Origin: Takakia lepidozioides
Lineage: Eukaryota; Plantae; Bryophyta
Assembly: GCA_030704615.1 (NCBI GenBank)
Contig: CM060732.1
Location: forward strand, 18,352,001 to 18,416,000
Length of the DNA: 64,000 nucleotides
Direction: 5' to 3'
The notes beneath the pieces are model-generated. The model was not told the origin of the DNA and searched no databases. It was given only the letters and a program-made list of their open reading frames with translations. This document shows, piece after piece, positions 1 through 49,475 of the stretch (its first letter is position 1; every line of letters begins with the position of its first letter). The position numbers and the translations under genes were made by a program.

Positions 1-703
1 TTGTCATGCACCAAGGGTGTCCGTCATGTTTCTTGTCCATGCCTTGCAGAAGCCTAGCCAGTCCACTGGAAGACGTGGGAGGGTTGAGCTCAAACAAGAT
101 GTCCCCATCAAACTTTGTTGGCACGTATTGAACCCGCTGCACATGAAGGGACTCCCAATCAACAAAACGCAACTCGCTCTTGCACCCAAGCACCCCTGCG
201 AGGGCTTTCAATTTCGGAATGACACTCGTTATCTCCTGCAATTCGTCATCATCCAAGATGGGAGTGTGCACTGGCGGAGGAATCTCAGAAACATCCTCCG
301 AGGACGAGTCTGAAAGAGTCACGAATGTAGTGGATGTGCTCACCTCTTGTTTCACATGAACTGTGCCCTTCTGCTGCACGACTGATGCTGCAGTGCCAGG
401 GGTAACTACTGATCCTGCTGATTGTCTTCTCTCTTTTCCAAGGACATAGGATGTGCCTGGAAGGACTCTCCACTTCCTTCCACACTCGCCAACCAATGGT
501 TTCTCCAAGTGCCCAGAATCCAAATTCCCATCCTCGTCATACACCTCTTTTTGAACAAGCAGATAACCCAATTCCAGCGGGAACACTGTAACCAGCTCAT
601 CCTCATGAACAACTGCAAACCCATTGTCGTCTGTAGTGGTAGTCAGTGGAAGACTACCTGCATTGGAATGAAATCGAGCGAGTCTATCTTACTCCCTCGA
701 CAT
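1..703 (-). pseudogene. 5' part of a putative DNA-transposon protein with a DGxxW (WRKY/GCM1-like) motif; runs off the window
   Basis: Manual translation: ATG at 703, in-frame TAA at 691-689, then an open frame from 688 to 1 ending ...VQYVPTKFDGDILFELNPP...QGMDKKHDGHPWCMT. It is absent from the ORF track, probably because there is no stop in the window. The transposase and domain assignments are inference. Confidence 0.5.
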
Positions 704-1067
704 GTTTTCCTCCACTGACCAAAAATTGCGATTCACAACGGAATCCCCGAACTGATAGCCCGTAATTCTCGAAAGGGGATCCACCACAAACAAACTGAGG
801 TCAATAAGGTTAGCACTAACCCAAAGACTGTGGGCGATGCCTGCAAATGATGTAGGAATGACATGCACCGAACTTCGCAGACAACCACACTGAGAGACAC
901 CAACCAAAAAAACTGTTTAGGGTGACAAGAAGCCACAAGAAGCCGTGCTGTATTTGGATGAAAAACAAACCCTAAACATGACATGAAACCATCAATTATG
1001 GAAAGACGACAACAACCCTAGAGAGCAGTAAACAGGAAGACCCCGAATGTAATGAGGTTGTGTTGTG

Positions 1068-4000
1068 CACCTTGTCATTGTTTTTTTCATTTGGAATCGG
1101 CCTCATAGGGTATCTCTTTGAGCTTCAATGCACACTTACCTGGCAGCTCTAGCAGTGTGTGTCAACGCACACTGTTTGAGCCCACCTTGTCATTCTTTTT
1201 TTCATTTGGAAATCGGTCTCATAGGGCATCTCTTTGTTACACTTACCTGGCAGCTCCAGCAGTGTGCGTCAACGCACACTATTTGAGCCCACCTTGTCAT
1301 TGTTTTTTTTCATGTGAAAATCGGCCACATAGGGCATCTCTTTGAGCTTCAATAAACACTTACATGGTAGCTCCAGCAGCGTGCGTCAATGCACACTGTT
1401 TGAGCCCACCATGTCATTATATTTTTAATCTGAAAATCGGCCACATAAGACATCTCTTTGAGCTTCAATGCACACTTACGTGGCAGCTCAAATAGTGTGC
1501 GTCAACGCACACTGTTTGAGCCCAACTTGTCATTGTTTTTTTCATGTGAAAATTGGTCACATATGGCATGTATTTGAGGTTCAATGCAGACTTACCTGGC
1601 AGCTCAAACAGTGTGCGTCAACGCACACTGTTCCAGCCCACCATGTCATTGTTTTTTTTTATATGAAAATCGGCCACATAGGGCATCTCTTTGAGCCTCA
1701 ATACGCACTTACGTGACAGCTCAAACAGTGTGCATCAACGCACACTGTTTGACCCCAACATGTCTTTATTTTTTTCATGTGAAAATCGGCCACATAGGGC
1801 ATGTATTTGAGGTTCAATGCAGACTTACGTGGCAGCTCAAATAGTGTGCGTCAACGCACTCTAATGCAATCATCCATTTTTTATTTTATTTTTTTTTTTT
1901 TTTTTTTGAAAATCGGCCACATAGGGCATCTCAAGGCAGCTCCAGCAGTGTGCGTCAACGCACACTGTTTGAGCACACCATCTCATTATTTTTTTAATCT
2001 GAAAATCGGCCACATAAGGCATCTCTTTGAGCTTCAATGCACACTTACGTGGCAGCTCAAATAGTGTGCGTCAACGCACACTGTTTGAGCCCAACTTGTC
2101 ATTGTTTTTTTCATGTGAAAATTGGCCACATAGGGCATGTATTTGAGGTTCAATGCAGACTTACCTGGCAGCTCAAACAGTGTGCGTCAACGCACACTGT
2201 TCCAGCCCACCATGTCATTGTTTTTTTTTATATGAAAATCGGCCACCTAGGGCATCTCTTTGAGCCTCAATACACACTTACGTGGCAGCTCAAACAGTGT
2301 GCGTCAACGCACACTGTTTGACCCCAACATGTCTTTATTTTTTTCATGTGAAAATCGGCCACATAGAGCATGTATTTGAGGTTCAATGCAGACTTACGTG
2401 GCAGCTCAAACAGTGTGCGTCAACGCACACTGTTGCAGGCATTTTTTTATTTTTTTTTATTTTTTTTTCGAAAATCGGCCACATAGGGCATCTCAAGGCA
2501 GCTCCAGCAGTGTGCGTCAACGCACACTGTTTGAGCACACCATCTCATTATTTTTTTAATCTGAAAATCGGCCACATAAGGCATCTCTTTGAGCTTCAAT
2601 GCACACTTACGTGGCAGCTCAAATAGTGTGCGTCAACGCACACTGTTTGAGCCCAACTTGTCATTGTTTTTTTCATGTGAAAATTGGCCACATAGGGCAT
2701 GTATTTGAGGTTCAATGCAGACTTACCTGGCAGCTCAAACAGTGTGCGTCAACGCACACTGTTCCAGCCCACCATGTCATTGTTTTTTTTTATATGAAAA
2801 TCGGCCACCTAGGGCATCTCTTTGAGCCTCAATACACACTTACGTGGCAGCTCAAACAGTGTGCGTCAACGCACACTGTTTGACCCCAACATGTCTTTAT
2901 TTTTTCATGTGAAAATCGGCCACATAGAGCATGTATTTGAGGTTCAATGCAGACTTACGTGGCAGCTCAAACAGTGTGCGTCAACGCACACTGTTGCAAG
3001 CATTTTTTTATTTTTTTTTTATTTTTTTTATTTTTTTTTCGAAAATCGGCCACATAGGGCATCTCAAGGCAGCTCCAGCAGTGTGCGTCAACGCACACTG
3101 TTTGAGCACACCATCTCATTATTTTTTTAATCTGAAAATCGGCCACATAAGGCATCTCTTTGAGCTTCAATGCACACTTACGTGGCAGCTCAAATAGTGT
3201 GCGTCAACGCACACTGTTTGAGCCCAACTTGTCATTGTTTTTTTCATGTGAAAATTGGCCACATAGGGCATGTATTTGAGGTTCAATGTAGACTTACCTG
3301 GCAGCTCAAACAGTGTGCGTCAACGCACACTGTTCCAGCCCACCATGTCATTGTTTTTTTTTATATGAAAATCGGCCACCTAGGGCATCTCTCTGAGCCT
3401 CAATACACACTTACGTGACAGCTCAAACAGTGTGCGTCAACGCACACTGTTTGACCCCAACATGTCTTTATTTTTTTCATGTGAAAATCGGCCACATAGG
3501 GCATGTATTTGAGGTTCAATGCAGACTTACGTGGCAGCTCAAACAGTGTGCGTCAACGCACACTGTTGCAAGCATCTTTTTTTTTTTTTTTTTTTTTTTT
3601 TTTCGAAAATCGGCCACATAGGGCATCTCAAGGCAGCTCCAGCAGTGTGCGTCAACGCACACTGTTCGAGCACACCATGTCATTATTTTTTTAATCTGAA
3701 AATCGACCACATAAGACATCTCTTTGAGCTTCAATGCACACTTACGTTGCAGCTCAAATAGTGTGCGTCAACGCACACTGTTTGAGCCCAACTTGTCATT
3801 GTTTTTTTCATTTGAAAATTGGCCACATAGGGCATGTATTTGAGGTTCAATGCAGACTTACCTGGCAGCTCAAATAGAGTGCGTCAACGCACACTGTTCC
3901 AGCCAACCATGTTTTTTTTTTTTTTTTTTTTTTTTTTTTTCTTTGAAAATCGGCCACATAGGGCATCTCTTTGAGCTTTAATGCACACTTACGTGGCAGT

Positions 4001-5769
4001 TCCAGCAGTGTGCGTCAACGTACACTGTTCGAGTCCACCATGTCATTATTTTTTTAATCTGAAAATCGGCCACATAAGGCATCTCTTTGAGCTTCAATGC
4101 ACACTTACGTGGCAGCTCAAATAGTGTGCGTCAACGCACACTGTTTGAGCCCAACTTGTCATTGTTTTTTTCATGTGAAAATTGGCCACATAGGGCATGT
4201 ATTTGAGGTTCAATGCAGACTTACCTAGCAGCTCAAACAGTGTACGTCAACGCACACTGTTCCAGCCCACCATGTCATTGTTTTTTTTTATATGAAAATC
4301 GGCCACATAGGGCATCTCTTTGAGCTTTAATGCACACTTACGTGGCAGTTCCAGCAGTGTGCGTCAACGCACACTGTTCGAGTCCACCATGTCATTATTT
4401 TTTTAATCTGAAAATCGGCCATAAAAGGCATCTCTTTGAGCTTCAATGCACACTTACGTGGCAGCTCAAATAGTGTGCGTCAACGCACACTGTTTGAGCC
4501 CAACTTGTCATTTTTTTTTTCATGTAAAAATTGGCCACATAGGGCATGTATTTGAGGTTCAATGCAGACTTACCTGGCAGCTCAAACAGTGTGCGTCAAC
4601 GCACACTGTTCCAGCCCACCATGTCATTGTTTTTTTTATATGAAAATCGGCCACCTAGGGCATCTCTTTGAGCCTCAATACACACTTACGTGGCAGCTCA
4701 AACAGTGTGCGTCAACGCACACTGTTTGACCCCAACATGTCTTTATTTTTTTCATGTGAAAATCGGCCACATAGGGCATGTATTTGAGGTTCAATGCAGA
4801 CTTACGTGGCAGCTCAAACAGTGTGCGTCAACGCACGCTGTTGCAGGCATTTTTTTTTTTTTTTTTTTATTTTTTTTTTTTTTTTCGAAAATCGGCCACA
4901 TAGGGCATCTCAAGGCAGCTCCAGCAGTGTGCGTCAACGCACACTGTTTGAGCACACCATGTCATTATTTTTTTAATCTGAAAATCGGCCACTTAAGGTA
5001 TCTCTTTGAGCTTCAATGCACACTTACGTGGCAGCTCAAATAGTGTGCGTCAACGCACACTGTTTGAGCCCAACTTGTCATTGTTTTTTTCATGTGAAAA
5101 TTGGCCACATAGGGCATGTATTTGATGTTCAATGTAGACTTACCTTGCAGCTCAAACAGTGTGCGTCAACGCACACTGTTCCAGCCCACAATGTCATTGT
5201 TTTTTTTTATATGAAAATCGGCCACCACTAGGGCATCTCTTTGAGCCTCAATACACACTTACGTGGCAGCTCAAACAGTGTGCGTCAACGCACACTGTTT
5301 GACCCCAACATGTCTTTATTTTTTTCATGTGAAAATCGGCCACATAGGGCATGTATTTGAGGTTCAATGCAGACTTACGTGGCAGCTCAAACAGTGTGCG
5401 TCAACGCAAACTTAGCAAGCATTCTTTTTTTTTTTTTTTTCTTTTTCTTTTTTTTTTTTTTTCGAAAATCGGCCACATAGGGCATCTCAAGGCAGCTCCA
5501 GAAGTGTGCGTCAACGCACACTGTTTGAGCACACCATGTCATTATTTTTTTAATCTGAAAATCGGCCACATAAGACATCTCGTTGAGCTTCAATGCACAC
5601 TTACGTGGCAGCTCAAATAGTGTGCGTCAACGCACACTGTTTGAGCCCAACTTGTCATTGTTTTTTTCATGTGAAAATTGGCCACATAGGGCATGTATTT
5701 GAGATTCAATGCAGACTTACCTGGCAGCTCAAATAGAGTGCGTCAACGCACACTGTTCCAGCCAACCAT

Positions 5770-5810
<41 letters not shown>

Positions 5811-6493
5811 CTCTGAAAATCGGCCACATGGCATCTCTTTGAGCTTTAATGCACACTTACGTGGCAGTTCCAGCAGTGTGCGTCAACGCACACTGTTCGA
5901 GTCCACCATGTCATTATTTTTTTAATCTGAAAATCGGCCACATAAGGCATCTCTTTGAGCTTCAATGCACACTTACGTGGCAGCTCAAATAGTGTGCGTC
6001 AACGCACACTGTTTGAGCCCAACTTGTCATTGTTTTTTTCATGTGAAAATTGGCCACATAGGGCATGTATTTGAGGTTCAATGCAGACTTACCTGGCAGC
6101 TCAATAGAGTGCGTCAACGCACACTGTTCCAGCCAACCATGTTTTTTTTTTTCTTTTTTTTTTTTTCTTTGAAAATCGGCCACGTAGGGCATCTCTTTGA
6201 GCTTTAATGCACACTTACGTGGCAGTCCAGCAGTGTGCGTCAACGCACACTGTTCGAGTCCACCATGTCATTTATTTTTTAATCTGAAAATCGGCCACAT
6301 AAGGCATCTCTTTGAGCTTCAATGCACACTTACGTGGCAGCTCAAATATTGTGCGTCAACGCACACTGTTTGAGCCCAACTTGTCATTTTTTTTTCATGT
6401 GAAAATTGGCCACATAGGGCATGTATTTGAGGTTCAATGCAGACTTACCTGGCAGCTCAAATAGTGTGCGTCAACGCACACTGTTCCAGCCAA

Positions 6494-6528
<35 letters not shown>

Positions 6529-7215
6529 AAAATCGGCCATATAGGGCATCTCTTTGAGCTTTAATGCACACTTACGTGGCAGCTCCAGCAGTGTGCGTCA
6601 ACGCACACTGTTCGAGTCCACCATGTCATTATTTTTTTAATCTGAAAATCGGCCACATAAGGCATCTCTTTGAGCTTCAATGCACACTTACGTGGCAGCT
6701 CAAATAGTGTGCGTCAACGCACACTGTTTGAGCCCAACTTGTCATTGTTTTTTCATGTGAAAATTGGCCACATAGGGCATGTATTTGAGGTTCAATGCAG
6801 ACTTACCTGGCAGCTCAAATAGAGTGCGTCAACGCACACTGTTCCAGCCAACCAGTGTTTTTTCTTTTTTCTTTTTTTTTTTTTCTTTGAAAAATCGGCC
6901 ACATAGGGCATCTCTTTGAGCTTCAATGCACACTTACGTGGCAGTTCCAAGCAGTGTGCGTCAACGCACACTGTTCGAGTCCACCATGTCATTATTTTTT
7001 TAATCTGAAAATCGGCCACATAAGGCATCTCCTTGAGCTTCAATGCACACTTACGTGGCAGCTCAAAGAGTGTGCGTCAACGCACACTGTTTGAGCCCAA
7101 CTTGTCATTGTTTTTTTCATGTGAAAATCGGCCACATAGGGCATGTATTTGAGGTTCAATGCAGACTTACCTGGCAGCTCAAATAGTGTGCGTCAACGCA
7201 CACTGTTTCAGCCAA

Positions 7216-7256
<41 letters not shown>

Positions 7257-8990
7257 AAAATCGGCCACATAGGGCATCTCTTTGAGCTTCAATGCACACT
7301 TACGTGGCAGCTCACAGTGTGCGTCAACGCACACAGTTCCCATCACATGTAATGTTGTTTTTTTATCTGAAAATCGGCCACATAGGGCATCTCTTTGAGC
7401 GTTAATGCACACTTACCTGGCAGCTCAAATAGTGTGCGTCACGCACACTGTTTGAGCCCAACTTGGCATTGTTTTTTTTTCATGTGAAAATTGGCCACAT
7501 AGGGCATGTATTTGAGGTTCAATGCAGACTTACCTGGCAGCTCAAATAGTGTGCGTCAACGCACACTGTTCCAGCCAACCATGTTTTTTTTTTTTTTTTT
7601 TTTTTTTTTTTTGGATAATCGGCCATATAGGGCATCTCTTTGAGCTTTAATGCACACTTACTTGGCAGCTCCAGCAGTGTGCGTCAACGCACACTGTTCG
7701 TGTCCACCATGTCATTATTTTTTAATCTGAAAATCGGCCACATATGGCATCTCTTTGAGCTTCAATGCACACTTACGTGGCAGCTCAAACAGTGTGCGTC
7801 AACGCACAACAGCCCACCATGTCATTGTTTTTTTTATTGAAAATCGGCCACATAGGGCATCTCTTTGAGCGTCAATGCACACTTACCTGGCAGCTCAAAC
7901 AGTGTGCGTCAACGCACACTGTTTGAGCCCAACTTGTCATTTTTTTTTTCATGTGAAAATTGGCCACATATGGCATGTATTTGAGGTTCAATGCAGACTT
8001 ACCTGGCAGCTCAAATAGTGTGCGTCAACGCACACTGTTCCAGCCAACCATGTTTTTTTTTTGTTTTTTTTTAATTATTTATTATTTATTTAATAAATTA
8101 GCCACAGAGGGCATCTCTTTGAGCTTTAATGCACACTTACGTGGCAGCTCCAGTAGTGTGAGTCAACGCACACTGTTCGAGTCCACCATGTCATTATTTT
8201 TTCAATCTGAAAATCGGCTACATATGGCATCTCTTTGAGCGTCAATGCACACTTACGTGGCAGCTCAAATAGTGTGCGTCAACGCACATTGTTTGAGCCC
8301 AACTTGTCATTGTTTTTTTCATGTGAAAATCGGCCACATAGGGCATGTATTTGAGGTTCAATCCAGACTTACCTGGCAGCTCAAACAGTGTGCGTCAACG
8401 CACAACAGCCCACCATGTCATTGTTTTTTTTATCTGAAAATCGGCCACATAGGGCATCTCTTTGAGCGTCAATGCACACTTACCTGGCAGCTGGCATTTT
8501 AGAATCGACCACAAAGGTCATCTCTGTCAGGTTCAATTCAGACTTACCTGGCAGCCCAAACGGTGTGCGTCAACGCACACGGTTTGAGCCCCCCTGATTT
8601 GCTTGTTTATGGATATGGAAATTGTGCACCTACGGCTAGTCTGGCAAGTTCATTCGACTCCAAAATGGAAGCTCAAACAGTGTGCGCGGACGCACACTGT
8701 TTGAGCCCCCTTCACTGCCTTTTCTTTTATTTCAAATTGGTCACTTATGGCCACTATGCCATATTAAAATCACACCTTATTGCAAGCTCAAACAGTGTGC
8801 GGCAACGCACACTGTTTGAGCTTCCTTATGTGATTGATTTTGATGTGAAAATCGGTCTCCTGGGGCCACTTTGGCAGGTTGAATCCAATCTTTATTGGAA
8901 GCTCAAACAGTGTGCGGCAACGCACACTGTTTTGAGCCCCCTTCGTGCTTGTTTTTCTATGTGAAATTGGGCCTAACAGGGCCAGTATGC
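1068..8990. repeat. Tandem satellite, ~118-bp monomer (roughly 65-70 copies), each with a 36-bp palindrome; higher-order repeats
   Basis: Recurrent unit GAAAATCGGCCACATAGGGCATCTCTTTGAGCTTCAATGCACACTTACGTGGCAGCTCAAACAGTGTGCGTCAACGCACACTGTTTGAGCCC...poly-T. Near-identical ORFs recur at 1468, 2037, 2599 and 3170 (~562-571 bp period). Monomers at both edges are more degenerate. Confidence 0.97.
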
Positions 8991-10239
8991 ATGCTCAAAA
9001 CTCCCATAGTTGTCAAAACTCCCATGGTATTTGGATTGCCCTCCTTCTGAGACCCCAGCTCAGGATGTGTCTTTGAGGAGAGAGAATGAGCGTATAGCAG
9101 CCACCGCCGCAGCAGCCGACCTCGACATTCATGATAGAAATTTGAGGACTCTTGCAGAGAAGGAGCCTCCCGCTCAGGATACCCCGGTAGAGGTTGAAAG
9201 GCAAAGGGAAAAGATGTTGTTGGTGGTGTGGGGAAAGGAAGGGGTAGGGGGAAGGAGGCACAAGGGCAGATAGGTGGGCTATCACACCTATTTGGACTTC
9301 TTTCAAGTCCTCCTCGGTCTTACGTGCAACCTGTCTATGCGGAGGCACTCGCAACAAGCATGTCCATTCATGGCACTCGCTGTCCGCCCATTGACGGCCG
9401 TGGTAGAAGACGTGGTGTTGGGGCCAGAATCTTTGTGGATGACATAGCACAGGAGGTCGAGAGTGATTCTGATGACTGTGACACTTGATATGAAGTTTTC
9501 TTTTGGTTTTATTCGGGGCCAAATTTGAAATGGGATGGTTGTGTGTCCTTGTTGTCCTGTTTGCAATGTGTGCGTGGGATGCAACTTCATGGGAACAAAC
9601 TATTATTGGAGATGGGGGTTGCATGGACTGCCCGGATTGTTCCTTCAATCTATTTAGAGTTTTGTGGACCTCACAGGCTTGAGTGCATTTCAAAAACAAA
9701 CAATCGACTTTGGTTCGTGTACAGCATTCTCGCATCATTTGCTCGCTTGTCTCCAAACCATTCCTGCTAGAAGAATGCTTGGTGAATCCATCGAGGTGAA
9801 GTCCACGTGATCAAAGATCGTTCAGGCATTCTCAAATCTGGTGAGTATCCATGATGCTCCCGCACATACTTGGCATGTTCACAAAGGTGGTGAGTAAGAA
9901 AAGATTTCGCAGGGATCCGCTTTAGATGATGTCAGTGTGCACCTCCTCACGACGTACCCACATTCCAATGCAGAGTTTGGCTTTCCGTCCTTAAGCTCCC
10001 GACAGTCTCGAGGCTGAGCCAAAAGCCCAGGCCCTCCTGAGGCCTAGTTTTTGGGCAAATTACACACAGCAGATTGATGCTTGTGTGAAGGGATTTCTAG
10101 AGGATATCTGGAAAACATGGATTAATTCTTTATATGAAGGAAAGTCTTTGATAACGTCTAGATGGATGCAATGGATACAAAGGATGGATACAATGGATGT
10201 AATACATCCAGTCTGCATTCCCGGGAAATGGCTGTTCAA

Positions 10240-10369
10240 CCCGCGGTAATAGGTGACACCCGCGGAAATAGGCCCTGTATGCATGCTGACGTGGCGTGAG
10301 CCTGTGCTGGGCTCACGGTTTCCTGGGCTCACAGGCTCACGCCTCCGGGCTCACGGAATAGCACCCCCC
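10240..10369 (-). mobile_element. Terminal inverted repeat end of a large TIR element (other end probably left of the window)
   Basis: The minus strand reads GGGGGGTGCTATTCCGTGAGC...CACCTATTACCGCGGGTTG. This matches the left end of the 18820-21816 element (GGGGATTGCTAAACCGTGAGC...CACCTATGACCGCGG...CCTACTACTGCGGGTTG). GCTCAC subterminal motifs are repeated. Confidence 0.7.
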
Positions 10370-10375
10370 CTCCCC

Positions 10376-11909
10376 TACTAGCAAAATGGGTTCTTCGAGT
10401 GTTCACTAATCTAAACAGCCCCTGGAGCATTATTGTGCATCATCACATTATGTCTGCCACACCGCGCTCTAGCCCTTTGTGGCCTCCCTCTCTTCGTTGG
10501 ATCGTTCAGGGAGGTAAGTACAGCATTCTTCCCAACTCAGGCTCGCACGCCTGGAAGTCCATTTGGTTTGCTTGGTGCCAGATTCGACCCTTTCTTGTGC
10601 AGCTATGCCCTAAGTCCTTTGACGAAGTGCTAAGACAGCCATTATTTGGCAACTTTAACCGTGATAAAGAGTTGCTTATCCCCTGCTCTAAAAGATGGGC
10701 TCCATAGGAAGCTGCTGGTCTCTCCCATGTAACTTATATTTGGGATGTGGTTTCGGGTTCCTTCATCTCCACTAGTCAGGCAGCAAAAGGATTCTTCTCT
10801 CGTCATATTGCTCTGGGTTGGGATGTGGTGACAGGTGATTTCCCTACCCTTTGGATGCTCTCCTCTCTCAACCTCATGTTCGGAAGTATCCCTGCTGGTT
10901 ATGTTTTTTCCAGGATGGGAAAGCCTTACCTTTCTTTGCTGAGCGCTCACTAGATGGTCAAATTGAAGGTTGTTGCTTCAGTGTTAACTTGGATGGTTCT
11001 CTATTTTCGCCTAAACGAACCCTTCTCCCTTATACTACTCCCCTCCATCTTATCAGGGTTTTCTGCTCCATTTCGGGTAAATTTGATCCTATTCCTTCTG
11101 GATTGTCACTGCCCTCGCAAACCCTGATCTGGTTCCTCTTTGCTCCAGTGAAAGATCTTCAGTTTGACCCAGGGGAGTGGGTATGGATGAATAAAAAGCA
11201 CAATCACCTTTTCTCTTATTCAGTCAAGCTGAGTTACAAGCTTCTCAGACCACCTCGGAAATTTGATCACAAATGGTTTGCCAAGTGGTCTCACATCCCT
11301 GGGCATCGTACTTCCTAGAAGCCGATTTGGGCTGATGTTTGGAAAAAACACAAATCAGCCAAGGTCTCCACTTTCCTATGGAAGATTGTTAATTGAATAT
11401 TGCCAGTTGGTGCTATGTTTTCTGAGAACCCTTCTCCTTGTTCTGTATGCTCTACTCAGGCTCAAGAAACAATTGAACATTGTCTCGTTCAATGCCCTTT
11501 TGCTATGAGTGTTTGGCATCTGATTGCAGTTTTTTATTCTAAGTGGAAGCCATGGTTTGATTTCTCCATTCCAATTCTTCTTCTCAATTTTAAAGGAGGG
11601 ATTATCTGGCATTCATGCCCTGTTTGGGAATCCTTAAGAGGTCTCACTCTCTGGAACCTCTGGAAGAGCATATGCTCTGTGATGTTTGAAAGAACTAGTC
11701 CTTGTCTGAAAAATGTCTTGTTTAGGGTTCCCTCAGATTTATTATCTGAGGCAAGGAAAACGTGGGTGGTGCTTTCAGCAACTTTACAGAGGTGCTCAGA
11801 CCGGAGACACACTCAACTGCTCGTTGTAGATGCATATATTGGTACAACTTTCTTTTCAGATCGTTTTTGTAAAACAAGCGGTTTCGGCATTGTACTGTCA
11901 AAAACATGA
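10376..11909 (+). mobile_element. LINE (L1-like) ORF2 3' fragment with zf-RVT
   Basis: LLAKWVLR motif at ~10376, CSVC...ETIEHCLVQCPFAMSVW, and LWNLWK; multiple frameshifts. Confidence 0.85.
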
Positions 11910-14560: not shown

Positions 14561-15865
14561 AATGACACTTCACGGGGGAGCGCTTGAGGGTTATGGAGGA
14601 GAGGAGATCAGGCGGAGAGCAAGAACGAGAGCACGGAGTAGGAGGAGAGATGAAAGAGAGGGTCTACGTTCAAATTCCGCAACAACGGTCGTCTTGTTGA
14701 TGCCGTTGTGGACCCTGTTACCTACGATGTCCTCTACAACTATGTGCCCCACTCCAGTATGCCGAAGGACACAAAGACAGGCAAACCGTGACGGTACAGC
14801 CAGACCCGGAGCCCTGCTTCCATACAAACCCTCATGGAGATGTGCTCGGATGTCCAAGGGCGCTCACATGCGGCACGGGTAAGCCTTCACGTGCACAGTT
14901 TGTCCCCTGGCCCGATTGCAATTGCATGCCGCATGACCGCCCGCTTTGTCCCTCAGGTGCCTCAATATGGGCAGGGACGTTGTCCGACAGGCATGTCTTC
15001 GCCTTCGAGCCAGATACTGCCCTCCCCAACTCCGAACTTGCAGCGGCTGAACGTTTGCCGAAAGAGGAAGATGCATCCTCGGAGGATGAGGAAGAATCCG
15101 ACAAGGAGCAGGGGGAGGTACAAGTTGGGATCGAGGCCGAGGAGCCCCCGGTTTACGAGTGAGTGGTCGCATTGTAAGTTGCCTCCTGATTTCTTGAGGC
15201 ACCTCCCTTCACTCTCTTATTTCATTGAAAGACCATTTTTTGCTTATCCTGGTATTGACATTCTTAAAGTGGATTTGTTCTTACTACATGATGCCAAGTA
15301 CTGCAGGAGGAAAGTCTACACCGCAGTTCATGGGCAGGAGGAACGTGCCTTTTTTTTGCCAGGGGGGATTTCATGCCTAGCCCAGAAAGGGACTACATCC
15401 TTCCTACTTATGCTGCCCGGCTTACTTCAGTGTCCATTATGAGGTCTTTCGAACCTAGTCGTGTACAGCAGATTTTAGACGAGGCAAGCCTCAAGAAAAT
15501 GAAGATGAGGGAGGAGGCAACAGCTATTAGAGCCCGTCAGGCTCGTAGATTTGTCTTGATTCTGCTGAGGAAAGTGGGGGAGAAGAGGCAGAAGATTCCC
15601 AGGAGGTGAGGTGGACAGTCCCCCAAAGAGAGGACAAAATTTTTGAGAGGCATAGTGGAACTGATGCATCACAGAGCTCGGAGGATGGGGGATGAGGGGA
15701 TGAGAGGAAGGCGGGGCAAGTTCCTCGGATGGTGTAGGAGAGTAGTGCCCATTCCGGCTATGACAGTTAGGACACACTTGTATAGATGTGGTTTGCCACA
15801 AAATTTGCAATAAAATGTTGCATTTCATTGCTATGACGAGTCCACTGGTGCCAAATTCCAACTTC

Positions 15866-15979
15866 ATATGACCCTATTTCCGTGCCTCCTAACCCTATTT
15901 CCGTGGACACACAATGGTCCGCTCATGCCTTTTTTTTTTTTCCGCTCATGCTCATGCCGCTCATGAAATAGCAACCCCC
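15866..15979 (-). mobile_element. Isolated terminus of the same TIR family, abutting a truncated LINE RT
   Basis: The minus strand reads GGGGGTTGCTATTTCATGAGC, with CCTATTTCCG and GCTCA subterminal motifs. The LINE RT frame breaks here, just before the expected LDFEKAYD motif. Confidence 0.6.
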
Positions 15980-17425: not shown

Positions 17426-18819
17426 ACTCTTCTCGAGCTGGGGTTGGATCCTGCACCTGCTGCCGGCGAGCTATGGCTTTTGCGAAGCCACCAGACCTGC
17501 TGTCATGCTCTCTTAGGCTCTCACGACCCACCAGAGGCACCCTAAACTCAACAAGCAAGCAATATGTTGCCCAACAAGCTCCATTTCTTCATGAAGCTCA
17601 CAAAAACGAATCTGAAAATACACACCTTTACAAAATTGGTGCACCTGCACTTCTCATGCATATTCCCTGGCTCTAGGGCGCCTCGTTGCTACCCTTCCAG
17701 CCCTGCTCTTGCCACTCCAAGAGCCCTTACACTGCTGAATTTCAGATTGAAACTCCAACTCAGCACATGCTTCACAAGTGTTCTGATTGCACACAAGAGG
17801 GACCAGCCCCCTCTCTTCACTCATACCTCCTCATAAGCTTGGAGCTGAAGCTCCCAACGGGCTGCGATGCATCCCCTCGTAGCTCCACCATTTGGCTGCT
17901 CCTCATCTACCCACAACAACTAGTTTCGGGTAGAAATACCTAGAGCTGATCATATCATCTCCAACCTGCAACATGCTAGCTTCCCATGCACAGCCCACAT
18001 TTCTGTAGCTCCTCAACTCGGCCTGCAGCTGAAGAAGACGACCACCAGTTCGCCCACTCGTGGCTAGAACCTCCTCCGCTTCACACTGAACCGCATACTC
18101 AGTTGCCATACCGTTGAGCTATGCAACACTGACCGCCTCTCTATCCATTGCAAACCTGCAACCTGTTCGCCTTTGCACTCTATCCGCTTTGGATAGGCTC
18201 ATGCACGGATCCCTGCACTCTAGGCTAAACCGCTTTTCATGATCTGAAAACACAAGTGCTACAACTAACTCGAACCTGGCACTCACAGACTCGAGCTAAT
18301 CATCTTTCTCGAGTGATAAAGAAAGGAAAGATACAAGCACACAAGCTCTCTCAAACTCACATACTTGCACATGAAAACATCACTCATATATTAAGTCGAG
18401 CCAAGTGCACCCCACGCCATGGGGAATCCACAATACGGCGCCATAGCTAGACGCGGTGAGGCTCAACTCGAGAAAGATGAGCCCACCGTGATCTGCCGTG
18501 AAGATAACAACGCCAGGTGCCAAACAAGTATTGGCCCCTGGATTGACACTTGGGTCAATCCCAAATGTCAATATATAAAAGCTAGCTATTTCCTAGCTAA
18601 CTTCATACTAGTGGTAAAATAACTTGACAGGGAGGACATTGTCAGTGATGCTCCCACGGCCAGCTTTTTCATGGATCACTAAGCAATCACTCTCTGACGG
18701 CTCTTCTGGGTTTTACCCTATGTCAGGGAGTTTCCCTTCCTCCGGAGGTTTCCCTGCGAGTGTTAAAGTTTTGTAGGCACGTTTCACCTTGGTTCACACT
18801 ATTCTGGGATTTCCAGGAG

Positions 18820-20506
18820 GGGGATTGCTAAACCGTGAGCAGAATCCATGAGCAGAATTCTGCTCACGCTTCTGCATATGCTCACCTATGACCGCGGACA
18901 CCTATTCGGCCTAGAAGACCTACTACTGCGGGTTGTGTCTGGTATATCATGCATACGTCATTCATCATTATGGATGAATGATGGATGAACGATGGATGAA
19001 TGGGGGATGAATGTATGTTCGACGAATGGCACATGGATGAATGTAGTTTGTGGATGAATGCAAAACTAAGATACATTTTTGAGTAGTGGTAGCTAAATCA
19101 CCTAGCTCTAGAGTGAACCTCTGCCCACTGGTGAGGGTTGTGATTGTCCTTTCATCAGGTATCAGAAGTCGACATAGTTGCTGACACACAATTGCAAAGA
19201 AGGTGGAGAGGCCATTTGGTGCTTCAAACTAAATAGTTTAAAAACTACAGATTCATTCCGACGAAGAATATTCTATGCTACTGGAGTCGGCGTCCGAAAT
19301 GAAGGCAGAACTGTCTATGAAGACACTAGCCCTGCTTTGCACAAAACCCTCTCTGTTTAAAAGCACAGCAGGGGGAGAAGAGATGAGACTAAATTCCGAA
19401 GCTGCAGCCTCCGCATAATATGACAATTTAAAATCTGCTTTCGAACTTGGGAAAAATTGCGGGTTTGCAAAGAAAGGGAGGAACCGTGGCGACCTTGGGC
19501 TCATGTACACACACACAAACAATGTAAGTCCACATACATTCTGCTGGCCCAACTTGTGAAGGAAAGATGGAAATAGAAGGATGTGCCGTCGTGTCAGTGA
19601 AGTACCACAACTGAACTAGCACTTATTCACATGAGAAATCGGAATCAACATCCAGAGCATTGGGTTTTTGCAGATCCTGCTCCATAACAATGTTCTCGGT
19701 CTGGGTCGAATGCGATAAACCCCCAGACAGAGGTGCGATGACTTGAGAGTAGAGCTGCTCGTCCCACTCCATCCCAAAAGATCCCAAAATGGTTGCAATT
19801 CACTCTCATGATTAAGGTGTCGTCAACGACATCTTAATCCAGGCACTAAGAGGCAGGACTCCATAACTGATGTTGGCAACTTTCAAAAAAATCTGACCAT
19901 GTTAGATCTTCATTCATGGCAAACTCATCCCAAGAGGGCATGGATTTAAGGTATCGTCAACGACACCTTAATTCCATCTCTCAAATAGCAATCAAACAAG
20001 AGAATGGCACAACACAGAACAACACAAGACTTCATTGAAATTGAAAGTAGGGACAAAGGTGCAGAGTTGAGGCCACCTTGAATCAAACGGTATCAAAGGT
20101 TGAGAGAAATGCTCACACCCAAATCTAAAGAAGGCAGAGAGGTGAACTCGTGCTTTATAAATAAACATCTCAAAACACGTACTGGGAATTAAGATGTCAT
20201 TGACGACACCTTAATCCCCAGCACCTGCACACACACTGCCTTACCGCCAAGGCTTGTTCGCCATCAGATTTTTTCGGGTGAATTTTTTTGGGGTTTTTGT
20301 TTTTTCCATGAATTGTCATATGCCAACTCGTACTGGGATTTAAGATGTCGTTGACGACACCTTAATTTGGCACATTCAGGGGGGAAATAAAATAAAATAA
20401 AATAAAAGAGTTTTGTTTTGTTTTTTTTTTTTGGAAAACTTGCTGGGAATTAAGATGGCGTTGACGACACCTTAATCTGGCACATTCGGGGGGGGGGGGG
20501 TGGCGG

Positions 20507-20542
<36 letters not shown>

Positions 20543-21816
20543 GGTTTTTATTTTTATTTTTATTTTTAAACTTGTTGGGAATTAAGATGTCGTTGACAAC
20601 ACCTTAATCCCCACCACTTGCACACACACCGCCAAGGCTTCTTCGCCTTGAAAGTTTTTTGGGTTGAAATTTTTTTGGTTAATATTTTTGGAAAAAAAAA
20701 TTCAGGGATTTTGGTTTTTCCGTAAGCTGTCATGTGCCAACTCGTACTGGGAATTAAGATGTCGTTGACGACACCTTAATCCCGAGCACCTGCACATGCA
20801 CCATGGTTCATTCATGTCGCTCATTTTTCATCCAAAAGTCATCCAACATTCATCCATTCATTTTTTCATTCATCTCAAAACCATTCAACTTGCAGCTTTT
20901 CATCGCACATTCGTACCATATGGTCGTCACCCATGAAGGATTATTCCGTCGGATGGGGTGGAGATTGTGTCCGTACAGTGTAATTTTTGTCCATGGCAAT
21001 ATGTCATCTTCTTCCCTCGGTTGTAGGCTCCCATTCACTAATCTGCTCACGTTTGCAATTTGCTCACGCTTAAGGGATTCTACTCATGTTTACCACTTAA
21101 AGCGTGAGCATGCTCACGTGAATTGCTCACACGGTAGCTACCCTCTTGCAAATGAGACCAGTCACTCTTCATGGATCCACTTTGTTCAAGTAAACCCAAA
21201 CCTTTCTCCAGTTTTGGGCTTATATATATATAAAGTGTTTTATCCTGTTTGGTGAAATTCCCATGTCCAAACAGGGCAGGGGATTAAGATGTCGTTGACG
21301 ACATCTTAATTCGTGCTTCCCTGAGCAGGATTACAACTCCCCCCTATGGTTTTTTCCAGGCAAGATTTTTTTTTTTCTTGCAACGATTTTCATGGGTTCA
21401 TTTCTCATGCTGAGCATGCGATTTAAGATGTCGTTGACGATACCTTAATGTCTGGTCCCTGTGCTTGCTGATCCCTCACGAGACATGCTCATACAGTTGT
21501 CCATAGTCCCCTCATCTGGACAACTTTTCATCCGTGCTTCATCCATCGTTCATCCATTTCACTTTTACATCCATCCCAAATCCATTCATCCGTGAATGTT
21601 TCATCGTGCATTCGTGCCACTTTGTCGTCATGGAGCCTTTCTATCTTCGGTCTGATGGAGCGGAGATTGCGTGTTAGTGAAGTTGGCGTCCACGGCAATA
21701 GGCCCACTTGTTCCCACGGTTTTGGGGTCCGCATCAGAAATCTGCTCACGCTTCGGGGAATCTGCTCACGATCCAGGAATCTGCTCACAGGTTCTGCTCA
21801 CGGCTTTGCTGCCCTC
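18820..21816. mobile_element. Non-autonomous TIR DNA transposon (~3.0 kb), superfamily unassigned
   Basis: Left end GGGGATTGCTAAACCGTGAGCAGAA versus the reverse complement of the right end GAGGGCAGCAAAGCCGTGAGCAGAA (ungapped). Flanked by the direct repeat AGGAG (18815-18819 and 21817-21821). Mirror-image TGGATGAA/TTCATCCA subterminal tracts; no transposase ORF. Confidence 0.8.
19811..21449. repeat. Nine dispersed 28-bp palindromes ATTAAGATGTCGT-TG-ACGACACCTTAAT
   Basis: Copies start at ~19811 and 19945 (CA-centred orientation) and at 20188, 20339, 20449, 20581, 20753, 21283 and 21422 (TG-centred orientation). Confidence 0.92.
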
Positions 21817-22416
21817 AGGAGGGAGCTCCGTCACACCCCCCCCCCCCCCCACCCCCCACCCGACAATGAGGATGTTGTTGGCTTTGTGTCTTTTATAGGG
21901 AAAACGAAAAAAACTCTGCTCAGTCCCATGGCAGCGACCTCGCCATCTGCTCTGCCAGGATCTTCTATGTAGGTAAGCTCAGCTTACTCCGCCTTCCCCT
22001 GGTTCATCTGCTGCTTCCCTACTCGCTTGCCCTCCAGGTGTCAAAGTGTTTGTTCGAAGGCACCTCTGGGTAAAGCGTTGCCACACTTCCTCCATGATAC
22101 TGGGTTTCAACCCTTGTCTGAAGGCTGTACATGGCCAGGACTCTGGGTTTGTCGAAAATCACTCTAAGCTGCGCTTTATCCCTACTAGAAAGTCTCAATC
22201 TGTCTCTTTGATTGGGGAATCTAAGAGAAGATCTAGAAAAGACTCTAGGAGAAGTCTATGGGTTGGTATTATCACCCAAGCCACTGTACTTCCCCCCCCC
22301 TTCTAGTTTCTATTGGATTTCCTCTCTTCTTCTCCACGACAGAAGAACTGTCTTTCTATTTCCTTCCTCAGGGCCATCATTTTGAGAGGATCTCTCGAGC
22401 CCTTCCTCTTCAATTG

Positions 22417-28998: not shown

Positions 28999-29265
28999 TG
29001 GCAGTGGATATGACTAGTGGCAGCTAACAAGACATGGGAGGCCAAGCTCATATGAGTCAATACCCGAGATCTCAGGCTCAAGTTCACAGGTTGCAAGATG
29101 GCGACTAACGATGGGGCAACTCTTGTACTCGGCCTCTTGATCCATCGAGTTTGAGTATAGTAGGAACAGTGGTGGAGGACTTAGTGAGGCTATGACCACT
29201 ATCACATCTTATGGCTAGCTGGACTTAGAGGGACCTAAGCGCCAGCTAGGGGGGCGATTGTGATG

Positions 29266-29495
29266 GACTAGTGGCAGCCTAGTGGTTGGACTAGTAGCTA
29301 CACTAGTGGTGGCTAGTGGCAGCCTAGTGGTGGACTAGTGGCTGCACTAGTGGCGGCTAGTGGCAGCCTAGTGGTTGGACTAGTGGCTGCACTAGTGGTG
29401 GCTAGTGGCAGCCTAGTGGTGCACTAGTGGCTGCACTAGTGGTGACTAGCGGTTGTCTAGTGGCAGCCTAGTGGTGCACTAGTGGTAGACTAGTG
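29266..29495. repeat. CTAGTGG-based tandem repeat (~45-bp unit, about 5 copies) at the LTR start
   Basis: Unit CTAGTGGCAGCCTAGTGGT(T)GGACTAGTGGCTGCACTAGTGGYGG starting at ~29267, 29312, 29357 and 29402. Confidence 0.9.
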
Positions 29496-30587
29496 ATAGA
29501 TTAGTGTTTGGTGTGCACATGTGTTGTGTGGTTTTGGACAGCGATGTAGTTGTGTAGTGATATGTATGCGCACGACATCCCATCTGAAAAGCAAGAAGCG
29601 TGTGTACCGTGGAGGCCGAGTCGAACTCAGACGAGTTATCCCAAAAAGCTCCAAAGTGTACTGTAGTCTCGCTTGAGAGCTGAAATTGAAAGGGCTGCTC
29701 AGCGAAGATATTACCAACGAGCTTGAGGGAGAGCTCCACTTCTTTGACGGTAGAGTAGTAAGTGGCATGGTGGGTGACAACTTTTTATTTTTTTCATTTT
29801 GGCAAGGGCGCTCCAGTCGCGATATATTTTGGGGGGTGAATACAGAGGTGGCGTCACGTCTTATGTCCACCTGGCTACACATATAACAAATATTGTGCAA
29901 TATGGCGAATTTTTCATAACTAAAGAATATTATGCAGGCGACACATGTCAAATTGAGGCAGAAATAGTGGGCGAAATTCCCCTTTGTATTGTGGCAAACT
30001 GGCTACCATGAAGAACCCAAGGTAGCACTTTGGGCACCATTGCCCAAATTCATAGAGCAAAATGGCACCACTCATTCAAATGGAAAAAAATAGTCTCAGG
30101 CACCATAGCCTAATTTCAGACTGAGGCCCATGCATATCAGCAGCCCCCCCACATTCAAGCGCCGCCACCCCTCCTCCACAACAACAAAGCAGCATATCAA
30201 CGGCCCCCCTACATTCAAGCAGCGTTGAAGGCCCGCTCCAAAGTTTTGTACAGTTGACCTTAGATAAATGTTATCTACTTTTTTGTTATGTTATCCTTAA
30301 TGTTATGAAATCTTGGCTCTGTAAAACATAATAGTTTGTTGGTTTTGAAAAAATAATAGTTTTGAAAATAGATATGATAAATGGTCCTAATAATGCTCAC
30401 TTTCAGCATGCACCTGTCACATTTTGCTTAACCTAATGGAATTTCAGTTTTTCTTTTACATGGGTCCTTTTTTTTTTACAGTTGGCAACCCATACATATT
30501 TTTCATTATGTGAAATCTATAAAATTGAGAATAACCCATTAGGTTTTCATGCAATGGTATCCGATCTCTAGAAACATAGAAAAATCC

Positions 30588-30635
30588 CTAATATTGCGCA
30601 CTTGATTGCGCGCGCAATCAAATGCGCAATATTAG
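30588..30635. repeat. 48-bp palindrome (1 mismatch, no loop) in the pogo subterminal region
   Basis: CTAATATTGCGCACTTGATTGCGC|GCGCAATCAAATGCGCAATATTAG; a half-site recurs at 51920-51945. Confidence 0.9.
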
Positions 30636-32859: not shown

Positions 32860-34024
32860 TTAGGTACCCAAAGGCAACAAAGGTGGAGGTAAACCTTGTT
32901 CCACCGATTCCTTCACTGCTTGCCTATATCTTCTGTTGATGGAGTCTTCGTCACAGTCACTGTCTTGAGGAGCACTTACCTTCTTACCTTTGCGTCGAGT
33001 CCGCCCAGACGATGAAGCAGCTTTGCTCTTCCGTGCTACTTCTTTCTCCGCCCTTACCCTCTCACGAATTGCTTTGGCAATCTCTTTTTGTTGCTGCAGT
33101 TCTTCTTGCCTTTTAAGACATTCAGCTTGCTTTTGTTCTTTGTCTTTGGCCCTCTGGAGGCGGCCAACTTCCAATTTCTCAAGCCTTTTTTTCTTCCTTT
33201 CCTCTATATCAAGTTTGCGTTGTTGGCCAGCTAAGACCTTTGCTTCCTTCTGCAACCGTTGCTCTCTCAAATACTCCTCATACTCCGGGCCAGTGATGCA
33301 CGCTTGCGATGCAATAGTCTGCCCTCGATCTTCTATAATACGAGGTGGCGGGAGGCTTGGTAATGTAAGAAGATCCACAAGGGTTGGCCTAGGCTCATCA
33401 ATGCTAAGTTGTGGACACACGTTGTGATAACTCTTCTTCTTCACTAAAGACCATCATGTCCAAGAGAGACTCTGGTGGATTTTCAATGTTGTCATTGAGA
33501 GGGCTCTCATGGGTTGATTCTTCGTCAGACCCTGAGTCTTCATGATGCCCTGAACTTGAGGTTGAACCCCTGTCAAGGTCATTGGAGTCAAATATTGTAC
33601 TTGGGCCCATATGAGAGTCAAGAGCATGTGGATCTAATGGAAATATCCCTGTTTTGCCGAACCCTGCTTTAACGTTCTCCACAGTGCAAGCTGCCTCTAG
33701 GGCCTGAGATGCCAAAGTTGCCAATGCCACTTTATTGCCATTGCCATTCAACCACTTTGGGTTCGCTGCAATCATCTCTTCCCGCAGCTGGCCGAACCTC
33801 AGCTTGAATGCTCGGAAGACTGCCACATCCAATGGTTGAAGCCTATGTGAAGTGTGAGGGGGTAGTAGGGCCACTTGTAAACCCATATCTCGCGCAATTT
33901 TCACAGCCTCTTCTGTGAGATGGCTTCCATGGCCATCCAACAGGAGAAAATGTGGGTTGTCAGGACTTACTCCTCCAGGCACGGACTGCTGAAAGTGCTT
34001 TAACCACTCAATGAACAGGTCATT
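32860..34024 (-). pseudogene. pogo transposase, C-terminal half
   Basis: NNDLFIEWLKHF, LLLDGHGSH, LPPHTSHRLQPLDVAVFRAFK, GFGKTGIFP, then a K/E/R-rich coiled tail after a frameshift. Confidence 0.92.
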
Positions 34025-36666: not shown

Positions 36667-37846
36667 GGTTTCTATATTGGTGCACATTACCTACCGGTGG
36701 AATCCACACCCTGATATGAATGATCCCGATTCCAAGGTTTTGAAAGAAATGCACTTTTACATTTCTGATGACAACAAGCATGACACGCTGTTCGTACAAC
36801 ATTGCTTTCGGTTTCATTGGAATTACCTTGCTGAAGCAGGGTTCAGACCTGAATCGCATTGGGTATGGAGTGACGGTTGTGCTGCTCAGTTTAAATGTGC
36901 TCGTCCTTGGTATTTTGTTAGTAGGTACCCCCACATCACAGGGGGTTGCACAATGTGGTGGAACTTTTTTGGATCAGGGCACGGGAAAGGTGAGCACGAT
37001 GGGGCTGGTGCTGTGATCAAGAGGGCTTTACGAGCAGAGCAGTTAAACTCAAATGGTGTGAAGCTGCAAAATGCTGCTGAGGCAGTAGCTTTTTTGCGCA
37101 AGAACTTGTCCACCTGACCTCCTTCTTCGTACTCTAAGATTTGAAAGCAGTGAAAAGACATTTTGTTGTTGGTACAGAAGATGTTGACCGTACACAAGAG
37201 TGGGATTGCAGACCGTACCTGGAACTCGGTCTTTACATTCCATTCTTGGGAGGAACAAGTCAGACCCAACCAAACTTATGGTTCGAGACTTAGCAAGTTT
37301 TTGTCCGCATTGTTTGGATCTTGATTGGGACAACTGCATCAATATTGCTCATGCACAAAAATGGAAGTTGCAAACCCTGCAACCTACAAATACAACTGCT
37401 GCTGGAGGCAGATTGAAGAAGAAGGGGATGAAGAACAAGAGTTTGGGGGAGATGGGGAGGACTTGGCCTCCTGCTTGGATACAGGGGACAATTTTGCTTG
37501 CAATGCTGAAGCTGGAAACTTAGAAGGGGTGGACTTCTACTTGCTCTGTTGTGAAAGGCCGGTTCACGTTGTTATGGAGACATTCAGATGGGTGGAGAAG
37601 TACTTTTGACCCTGGCGAGCATGGTTTGCAGGGAGATATTACCAGTTGTGTGGAAGAAGAGATAAGGCTTACAAGTTCCTATCTGACCAGCCTTTGGCAT
37701 TTCTGTATTCGCATTTGGTGAGGGCTATCAAATTTGCTATGCCTCCAGCGACATATCGAGTCAAAGGCAAGGATGCAGTCTTCACCTTGTCTGCGGATGC
37801 ATTGGAAGGCATCAATGAAGCTTTGGCAGCAATGGAAGATCGTTAA
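36667..37846 (+). pseudogene. Sola-like transposase, C-terminal half (inverted)
   Basis: VSILVHITY, ISDDNKHD, WSDGCAAQFK, WNFFGSGHGKGEHDGAGAVIKR, VPGTRSLH, FCPHC; frameshifts. Confidence 0.88.
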
Positions 37847-48706: not shown

Positions 48707-49475
48707 ATATTGAATTTCCAGAAAAAATGTATTGAGATGGTATCCGTTGTCCACTTGCATTGATGCAAACTACAACTGTCAGCCATTCTCGATTACCAGA
48801 ACTCCTAGTCAAAACTGCCTTGCTTCCTTTCCTTGCAATGACTTTGGCTCCACCAATCTTTATGCTGGCTGAAAGTCCTGTTTCGTCGACATTCCACACA
48901 TGAGATGGTAAGAACTTGGACCTGGCATATGTTTCACCAATGAACTTGTAGAAGGTATTACATCGCTCTGGACTCACATTCTTTGCTCTCTTAGCATCGA
49001 GGCCTTGTGGCGTCCGCAAAACAAGGTGTGGGTGCCTCAATTGGAAAAACCTCCACCACTTATTCCCGGGCATTCCAGCTTTTAAAGGGGTGGAACGACC
49101 TTCACAAATTTGCTTGACTTTGCTTTTTAACATCTGCAAAGATACACAATGGGCTACAACTTGCATATCCTCACACCATTTCACCAGTGCACTTTCTTCA
49201 TCTGGTCTCAAAGCAGTGGGTGGGCCAAGTTTCCTGTATGTCACCTTCTTTGTTTTCCAGCTACGGATGGTAGATTCAGGAATGTTGTACAATCTTGCAG
49301 CTGCGCGAAGGCCCATTTGCCTTGACTGAATGCTTTCGAGAGCTTCTTTCATTGATTCTTCTGTCCACTTGCCACGCTCCTTACATTTTTGTTTGAATCT
49401 CGGGGCAGGTGTCATGACACGATGAACTCTCTTCCCCCACACTAAGGGAGAAGACCCCTTGCACGCTGTCACCAT
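48707..49475 (-). pseudogene. pogo transposase, N-terminal half (HTH_psq, CENP-B-type HTH, first catalytic Asp)
   Basis: WTEESMKEAL...LRAAARLYNIPESTI, KWWRFFQLRHP, VWNVDETG, REWLTVVVCINASG...YIFSG. Confidence 0.93.

Follow-up and report, generated by a model that had tools for sequence, protein, structure and literature searches.

A 64,000-nucleotide stretch of the Takakia lepidozioides genome (contig CM060732.1, positions 18,352,001 to 18,416,000; the window, below, is this whole stretch) carries near its start a satellite array of 36-bp palindromes, which lies between a broken Mutator-like transposase gene and the high-copy end of a DNA transposon. A first-pass annotation had proposed that an internal site array of a DNA transposon had grown here into a satellite, and this proposal is upheld by a GCM-Mutator reading frame on one side, the high-copy end at 10369 on the other, and similarly placed arrays in relatives of the transposase. 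That the array belongs to the element is very probable, and this is firmer than the further step, weighed below, in which its palindromes are binding sites. The array and its immediate surroundings comprise the following features.

2..703, minus strand: 5′ portion of a gene for a GCM-finger Mutator-like (MuDRF-like) transposase, 50% identical over 226 aa to the homolog P0001 (E 2e-70)
704..1070, minus strand: non-coding leader from the array to the transposase start, likely the promoter region
1071..8492, no strand: main array, 63 units of ~116 bp with one 36-bp imperfect palindrome per unit, in 5-unit and then 3-unit higher-order repeats
7893..7928, no strand: the sole exact perfect 17+2+17 palindrome (36-mer), from a sequence search
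8554..8990, no strand: four older distal units, with palindromes 92-97% like the reference and linkers 65-69% (shuffled linkers 57-59%)
8991..10249, no strand: high-copy internal stretch with no recognised protein (contig depth; Pfam and tblastn without match)
10250..10369, minus strand: end of the element lying 5′ of the transposase, with the terminal motif and four TGAGC subterminal repeats (motif and contig depth)

Sixty-seven palindromes are counted between 1146 and 8937, after the removal of three false matches in linkers from 70 calls. The spacing between them has a mode of 116 bp (32 of 66 intervals, with 48 of 66 at 115-117 bp) and a mean of 117.5 bp, and each palindrome forms on average 14.1 of its 17 possible pairs. 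At least 13 of 17 pairs are in register at 54 array sites, against none in five shuffles and eight sites in the remaining 55 kb of the window. The palindromic satellite of the first-pass annotation is therefore real, although the perfect 36-mer occurs once and the modal spacing is 116 bp where ~118 bp was first given. Its account of the monomers was right about the tandem palindromes and overlooked their higher-order arrangement, in which 5-unit blocks that are 97-99.8% alike are followed by 3-unit blocks that are 97-98% alike, with a long poly-T unit terminating every block. The final three units have deviating centres (CGGA, GCAA). As assembled, the array is 7.9 kb long and sits within a transposable element (TE) amid debris of long interspersed nuclear elements (LINEs) and long terminal repeat (LTR) elements. 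Palindromes hold 60% of its CpGs (147/245, tallied over 71 matches of which four are spurious). Its linker contains a short near-palindrome, TTGA-GCT-TCAA. A scan of viral sequences for the 14-base core returned 108 stretches, and the 80 of these that were listed hold a lone palindrome each, as chance would give.

The array lies 365 bp upstream of the broken transposase gene. The ATG at 703 is followed four codons later by an in-frame TAA (689-691), and because of this stop the window copy is likely defective. The reading frame at 1-703, at first called transposon-like, does belong to the GCM-Mutator transposase family, but its open part is 2-688, which continues past the window edge. Domain tests were made on the full-length homolog P0001 (698 aa, with 1647 cluster representatives related to it at E <= 0.001), of which the window has the first ~226 aa only. 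The top four Foldseek matches of the predicted P0001 model (mean predicted local distance difference test score, pLDDT, 79.8) are to ISCth4, an IS256-family transposase (E 1e-4 to 6e-4), and a VIA comparison with an IS256/Mutator-type transposase gave Z 7.7 (root-mean-square deviation, rmsd, 11.7; 163 aligned). By this structure match, P0001 has a DDE transposase of the IS256/Mutator type. The GCM structure 1odh matches the same model with a Foldseek probability of 0.98 and E 0.011 (VIA Z 6.0, rmsd 4.6, 132 aligned, residues 154-336), and the WRKY structure 2ayd reaches Z 6.2 over the same residues. These GCM scores are middling, and the Cys/His pattern is preserved in the transposase alignment. 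A direct Pfam scan of the transposase gave no match and a broad VIA structure search was dominated by helical bundles; the nearest Atlas clusters are MULE, with a basidiomycete cluster as the top match (a lead only). P0001 is predicted from the model to combine a GCM finger with an IS256/Mutator core and to be MuDRF-like. No viral contig that was searched carries the transposase, and among prokaryote genomes there was one match, on a 4.1-kb contig without upstream DNA in a cyanobacterial genome bin, which is probably plant contamination (L204).

Five ends of one type lie within the window, at 10369, 15979, 18820, 21145, and 21816. The pattern GRGGG-NN-GCTA..TGAGC is common to the 10369 and 18820/21816 ends, and TGAGC occurs two to four times within 120 bp of each window end against 0.16 expected. 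Over 8500-10700, summed contig depth in run X1, which may be the source of the assembly, is 14,000 to 1.7 million until 10369 and 68-132 past it (38,649 in the bin containing the end, followed by a several hundred-fold drop), a measure not usable as copy number. Because depth collapses at 10369, 8500-10369 is a high-copy element end. A run guessed to be RNA (X7) has no cover over 8500-9017, which carries no weight either way. Contigs span the assembly junctions at 10369 and 18820 with 0 differences, in runs that may come from the assembly's own sample. Contig joints that step back 103-170 bases suggest copies with different unit numbers, and at loose contig ends (8781/8785 and 8821/8822) the palindrome is joined to different linkers. 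Within the internal stretch, a ~145-bp piece at 10004-10148 has a summed depth about ten times that of its surroundings and is present too in the RNA-guessed run, and copies variously are without 9964-10147 or 9118-9630. The plus-strand interval 9060-9490 is coding-looking, with an acidic tail and a stop at its end, and is directed away from the transposase; the relatives gave no homolog.

The ends are linked to the transposase from outside the window as well. The 3′ ends of seven transposase-bearing relatives can be aligned in register to each of the five window ends, and the 3′ end of locus L121 has 14 identical bases in register with the 21145 end. The end type is thereby linked to the transposase family independently of the window. 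A 5′ end was sought in 80 relatives and found in none. For the array element one end (10369) is seen and its partner lies beyond the window, while a second element in the window has both.

15860..15979, minus strand: further end of the same type, with the terminal motif and TGAGC repeats
18820..21816, no strand: non-autonomous sister element bounded by ends of this type and holding nine palindromes, flanked by AGGAG at 18815-18819 and 21817-21821

The 10369 end had been called homologous to this second element. The end pattern is indeed common to both, but self-blastn between the array element and the 18820-21816 element found no similarity beyond it, and for this reason the two are sister families and not copies. 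The further claim that the second element has palindromes of its own with the same core is confirmed, since nine were found with the 8-bp core of the array and unrelated arms (6/17 identical). Depth rises from 52 to 4180 at its left terminus (18820), and 12 of the 26 listed loose-end contigs fall at 18818-18821 (four runs, one sample). The AGGAG on both sides amounts to a 5-bp duplication, with no 9-bp match, in a single case whose pairing is uncertain given two right ends (21145 and 21816). The segment 20825-21086 is 70% like 21525-21787, a likeness that suggests nesting or a duplicated end. Target-site duplications (TSDs) of MULEs are 8-11 bp (PMC6446971), and that of MuDRF is 9 bp; the sister element, the sole testable case, does not have one of this length. 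Because of its 5-bp duplication, seen once and with two right ends, we label the family MuDRF-like rather than file it as a member. An earlier reading as Sola with a 4-bp TSD was dropped, the transposase being of Mutator type and the terminus lying at 18820.

Other repeats share the window. Frames at 36659-37117 (plus), 44104-44895 (minus), and 45532-46511 (minus) have DFAENY and SDGCAAQFK/GHGKGEHDG motifs without a Pfam match; we take these motifs to be reminiscent of Sola-type transposases. Pieces of pogo-like transposases (DDE_1, HTH_psq, HTH_Tnp_Tc5) lie at 33404-34138 and 48705-49481, both on the minus strand. A near-perfect 48-bp palindrome with a CG-rich centre (30588-30635) has no relation to the array, and further arrays consist of an 11-bp ACTAGT-containing unit (29260-29506) and of 53-62 bp units (44900-45261).

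Whether palindrome arrays accompany this transposase elsewhere was assessed in the best 80 of 482 metagenome loci with the transposase, 35 of which have at least 3 kb of upstream DNA. These relatives array a palindrome that is again ~36 bp long and unlike that of the window, with 65 sites upstream in 17 of the 80 loci against three downstream. When six near-duplicate loci are removed, 47 sites remain in 263 kb upstream against one in 303 kb downstream, and five shuffles gave none. Arrays with a period of 51 occur in L156 (nine units), L173, L179, and L183; other periods are 107-134 with longer gaps (L161, L164, L173) and 113-116 (L128). Where homology reaches the array zone, sites are present in 11 of 13 loci (9/10 with duplicates merged), and where it stops short they are present in none of five. 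Among the three families, meaning that of the array, that of the sister element, and that of the relatives, the arms are unrelated (5-8 of 17 identical), and the feature in common is CG-N4-CG within a 30-36 bp palindrome. This is a weak sequence match, effectively of two to three bases, because symmetry supplies the remainder. The 8-base core of the relatives decays like CG-G-CG-C-CG, with three CpGs. As the relatives array a different palindrome upstream of the same transposase, palindrome arrays appear to be a family trait with turnover of the arms, and the cluster of the window copy appears to have expanded.

Several other candidate signals were examined and set aside. A CA/TG centre conserved across families was dropped, since the centre in the relatives is a decayed CpG (TG 18, CA 15, CG 4, TA 3 of 50) and homologous units differ in their centres between copies. 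TGAGC was likewise dropped as a common signal of the arms, those of the other two families being without it, and a W-box-like centre (GTCAAC) seen in the array is missing from the relatives. An informal look at helical phasing of the periods 51, 107, 116, and 127 gave inconsistent results across families. The relatives also have a second, AGCT-centred palindrome that alternates with the main one in arrays (L128:2180-2620 and L173:6650-6910), and a small repeat with three palindromes ~200 bp apart has been inserted many times in their loci (L138:1763-2187, L147:7665-13290, and others).

Homology upstream of the transposase extends over more than 10 kb in L173 and takes in a broken, intron-bearing second gene; 8 of the 80 loci have one of its exons and 10 have another.

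L173:1300-5400, L156:1300-5020, L179:3000-4090, L183:4400-5420, and L128:3000-8050: broken second gene, in tandem with the transposase in L128 and divergently oriented in the other four
14690..14848 of the window, plus strand: possible and weak second-gene remnant, pointing to the 15979 end; best window match (E 0.17) of a hidden Markov model that excluded the window row

The 51-bp arrays lie directly 5′ of one second-gene exon; those with a period of 107-134 bp separate the second gene from the transposase gene. By eye the second gene has the motifs DGNH, DVP, and VVDLNCG. We take these to recall ParB and amino-methyltransferases, a label that profile and fold tests leave unconfirmed. In hhalign the second exon falls on methyltransferase motif I with a probability of 3.5%, another run gave 0.7%, and an alignment to ParB gave 0.2%, all from short decayed fragments. 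The second-gene fragments have no match in Pfam, PDB, or Atlas, and the predicted fold (pLDDT 32) is unusable. A second-gene exon was sought in 8990-10369, and none is detectable there. A second gene of ParB/methyltransferase type in a plant DNA transposon is absent from the available text of three accounts (PMC4738411, PMC8885841, 10.1101/2021.02.12.428880).

The way in which the units have diverged provides evidence on what has been retained. Between the distal array units and the reference, palindromes are 92-97% alike and linkers 65-69%, and in the sister element the corresponding values are 83-97% and 32-63%. Recurrent variants occur in 1 of 20 inner palindrome columns, while 16 of the 54 columns in the linker have them (p 0.03). 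Pairing shows a different behavior from sequence. Among distinct arm changes in the array (61 of 67 units, the six with indels being excluded), 38 are one-sided and four two-sided, and 1 of these 42 keeps the pair; the variants that define the higher-order blocks disrupt the outer stem. A duplex site for a dimer fits these observations because the sequence is kept, the pairing goes unrepaired, and the palindrome has two-fold symmetry, and from the sequence we infer that a double-stranded binding site is favoured over a hairpin.

The reading we prefer, to which we give somewhat better than an even chance, is that the array grew from a palindrome cluster inside a high-copy MuDRF-like transposon and that its palindromes are candidate duplex docking sites, at each of which a protein encoded by the element would bind as a dimer. 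The likeliest binder is the predicted GCM finger of the transposase, with a self-regulatory role. The ancestral element would have had ~4-9 sites clustered upstream of the transposase. Protein bound at this cluster would control the promoter of its own element, through protection from methylation silencing, which VANC and the AtMu1 transposase provide to their elements, or through titration of the protein, and the arms would change along with the specificity of the protein. Slippage and unequal exchange, in the window copy or its subfamily, would have generated the 5-unit and 3-unit blocks and the 63 young units, growth of the array probably being a by-product. Since its transposase has an early stop, the window copy would need to rely on protein from other copies. 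There are precedents for parts of this scheme, as VANC target motifs build family-specific tandem repeats (PMC5735166) and the AtMu1 transposase activates its own copies (10.64898/2026.08.24.746577), and by analogy the upstream position and family-specific arms may follow the logic of a VANC target array.

A number of observations weigh against this interpretation. The AtMu1 transposase bound terminal inverted repeats (TIRs) rather than internal arrays (10.64898/2026.08.24.746577), and conservation across families extends to the TGAGC end repeats but not to the arms (5-8/17), a pattern that would fit a transposase binding the ends and not the palindromes. The second end of the element, which would show the reading frame and the array to belong together, falls outside the window. 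Some contigs stop at palindrome edges with other linkers, so the palindrome also occurs in contexts of unassigned position. The arrays of the relatives are found 2-8 kb upstream of the match to the transposase, partly beside the second gene, and their motif was selected from the very loci in which it was counted. Apparently one genome, or a small number of them, supplied all of the long relatives, duplicates were incompletely removed, and four loci from other species, with 1.3-1.9 kb of upstream DNA, have no array. In addition, intrastrand gene conversion could maintain the symmetry of the palindromes, and the product of the second gene may be their binder.

This last possibility, which we consider unlikely, would make the second-gene product an accessory protein, possibly ParB-like and amino-methyltransferase-like, that acts on CpG-rich palindromes in a VANC-like division of labour. 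It would account for an intron-bearing gene upstream of the transposase (exons in 8/80 and 10/80 loci) that the arrays adjoin or separate from the transposase, for arms that differ by family while the end motif is conserved, and for the CG-N4-CG core in all three families, the CG-G-CG-C-CG-like decay of the relatives' core, and the concentration of array CpGs in palindromes. The placement of the second exon on methyltransferase motif I points the same way, but at the probabilities given above, with Pfam, PDB, and Atlas blank and a fold of pLDDT 32; moreover, 8990-10369 holds no detectable exon, and the core match amounts to two or three bases with symmetry giving the rest. A neutral origin is a little less probable still. 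Under this explanation the array is a TE-borne minisatellite without a binding role, in which template switching created the palindromes, intrastrand conversion keeps them symmetric, and hairpins promote slippage. It is consistent with the imperfection of most young units, with the higher-order blocks and unstable poly-T tracts, both of which neutral amplification produces, with the broken transposase of the window copy, and with the common seeding of tandem repeats by TEs (PMC9659126). Such an origin leaves unexplained why palindromes resemble one another across units even where the linkers have diverged nearly to the shuffled level, as conversion within a palindrome would not keep separate units alike, and why palindrome size and side are the same in three families whose arms are unrelated.

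We regard it as improbable that the units act as structures, whether cruciform DNA or hairpin RNAs feeding small-RNA silencing, or that the array is centromeric. Folded as single-stranded DNA, all five intact sites tested from the window and the sister element are stable (z -3.2 to -7.9), as is an L156 site (-5.6), while a mutated unit gives -0.9 (seven sequences). Symmetry also outlives the total turnover of arms between families, and 66 of 103 two-sided changes in the relatives still pair. However, paired changes of this kind are expected from symmetric decay of methylated C, and the search pattern favoured them. In the array itself a single arm change preserves pairing and the block-defining variants break the outer stem, and Rfam has no family above threshold and none near it. 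The cruciform or hairpin small-RNA function suggested at first is therefore not supported. Tandem monomers with higher-order repeats would suit a centromere, but an array of 7.9 kb that lies within a TE, surrounded by LINE and LTR debris, is far below centromere scale.

Placed against what is already known, namely that satellites arise in transposons and that anti-silencing motifs form arrays in the VANDAL/VANC system, the new element here is an array of ~36-bp palindromes upstream of a GCM-Mutator transposase that recurs in three families with unrelated arms, one of which has been caught in mid-expansion into a higher-order satellite. The array is more than an ordinary satellite; it is an expanded case of a palindrome-array anatomy common to MuDRF-like transposons. 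A literature search outside Repbase, most subscription-based journals, and supplementary files (among them the Fig. S2 alignment for MuDRF) returned no account of such arrays. The families supply pairs of protein and site for approaching the coevolution of transposon binding specificity with its target array and the question of whether selection on sites starts satellites. They also widen the range of MuDRF-like elements to a host judged plant-like, and likely seed-free, from repeat content, CpG depletion (0.48), and a match in a plant metagenome; the second gene, as yet unexplained, and perhaps a target duplication of reduced length set these elements apart. A bolder extension, which we regard as a long shot, is that giant GCM-Mutator transposons of seed-free plants use a bacterial-style system of loading and marking, in which a ParB-like and amino-methyltransferase-like protein on parS-like arrays would mark or shield CpG-dense cores from silencing. 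Protein and arms would coevolve in each family, runaway arrays would seed satellites, and the 5-bp duplication would denote a branch at the superfamily level.

Comparison with known systems helps to delimit what is distinct here. Plasmid parS/sopC arrays bound by ParB consist of tandem units with one palindrome each. The likeness lies in the palindrome per unit and, in the relatives, the proximity of a gene with a DGNH(R) motif; the context here is a eukaryotic transposon, and a ParB identity is unsupported in all tests run. Centromeric satellites share higher-order tandem monomers, but their arrays run to hundreds of kb and bind CENH3. The MuDRF branch of MuDR/Mutator, described from basidiomycetes and Naegleria, has a GCM DNA-binding domain and a DDE transposase in one protein with a 9-bp TSD (PMC3164196), and the WRKY-GCM1 folds in MULE transposases are treated in PMC1702500. 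The present family is alike in GCM and DDE (predicted on P0001) and probably in TIRs, of which the sister element shows both, and differs in its plant-like host, its relatives of more than 14 kb with a second gene, the 5-bp duplication of the sister element, and its internal 36-bp palindrome arrays, which the available text of PMC3164196 does not mention for MuDRF. The single encoded protein of MuDRF is also not what the relatives have, their second gene lying within the shared body, though none was detected in the window element. Tetris (PMC4079207), TE-derived satellites (PMC9659126), and the Rehavkus minisatellite (PMC6446971) are similar in that a tandem array arises in a TIR element; here a long palindrome per unit is retained despite linker turnover, and the same anatomy is found in more than one family. 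VANDAL/VANC likewise involves a Mutator-like element whose non-coding, family-specific motifs are multiplied as tandem repeats (PMC5735166). VANDAL TIRs are absent or degenerate (PMC6446971), unlike the ends described here, and VANC motifs are 8-9 bp long, with no use of 'palindrom' in the available text of PMC5735166, in contrast to palindromes of ~36 bp. Motif binding and demethylation have been demonstrated for VANC (PMC5735166), whereas for the palindrome arrays of the MuDRF-like families binding is predicted from sequence.

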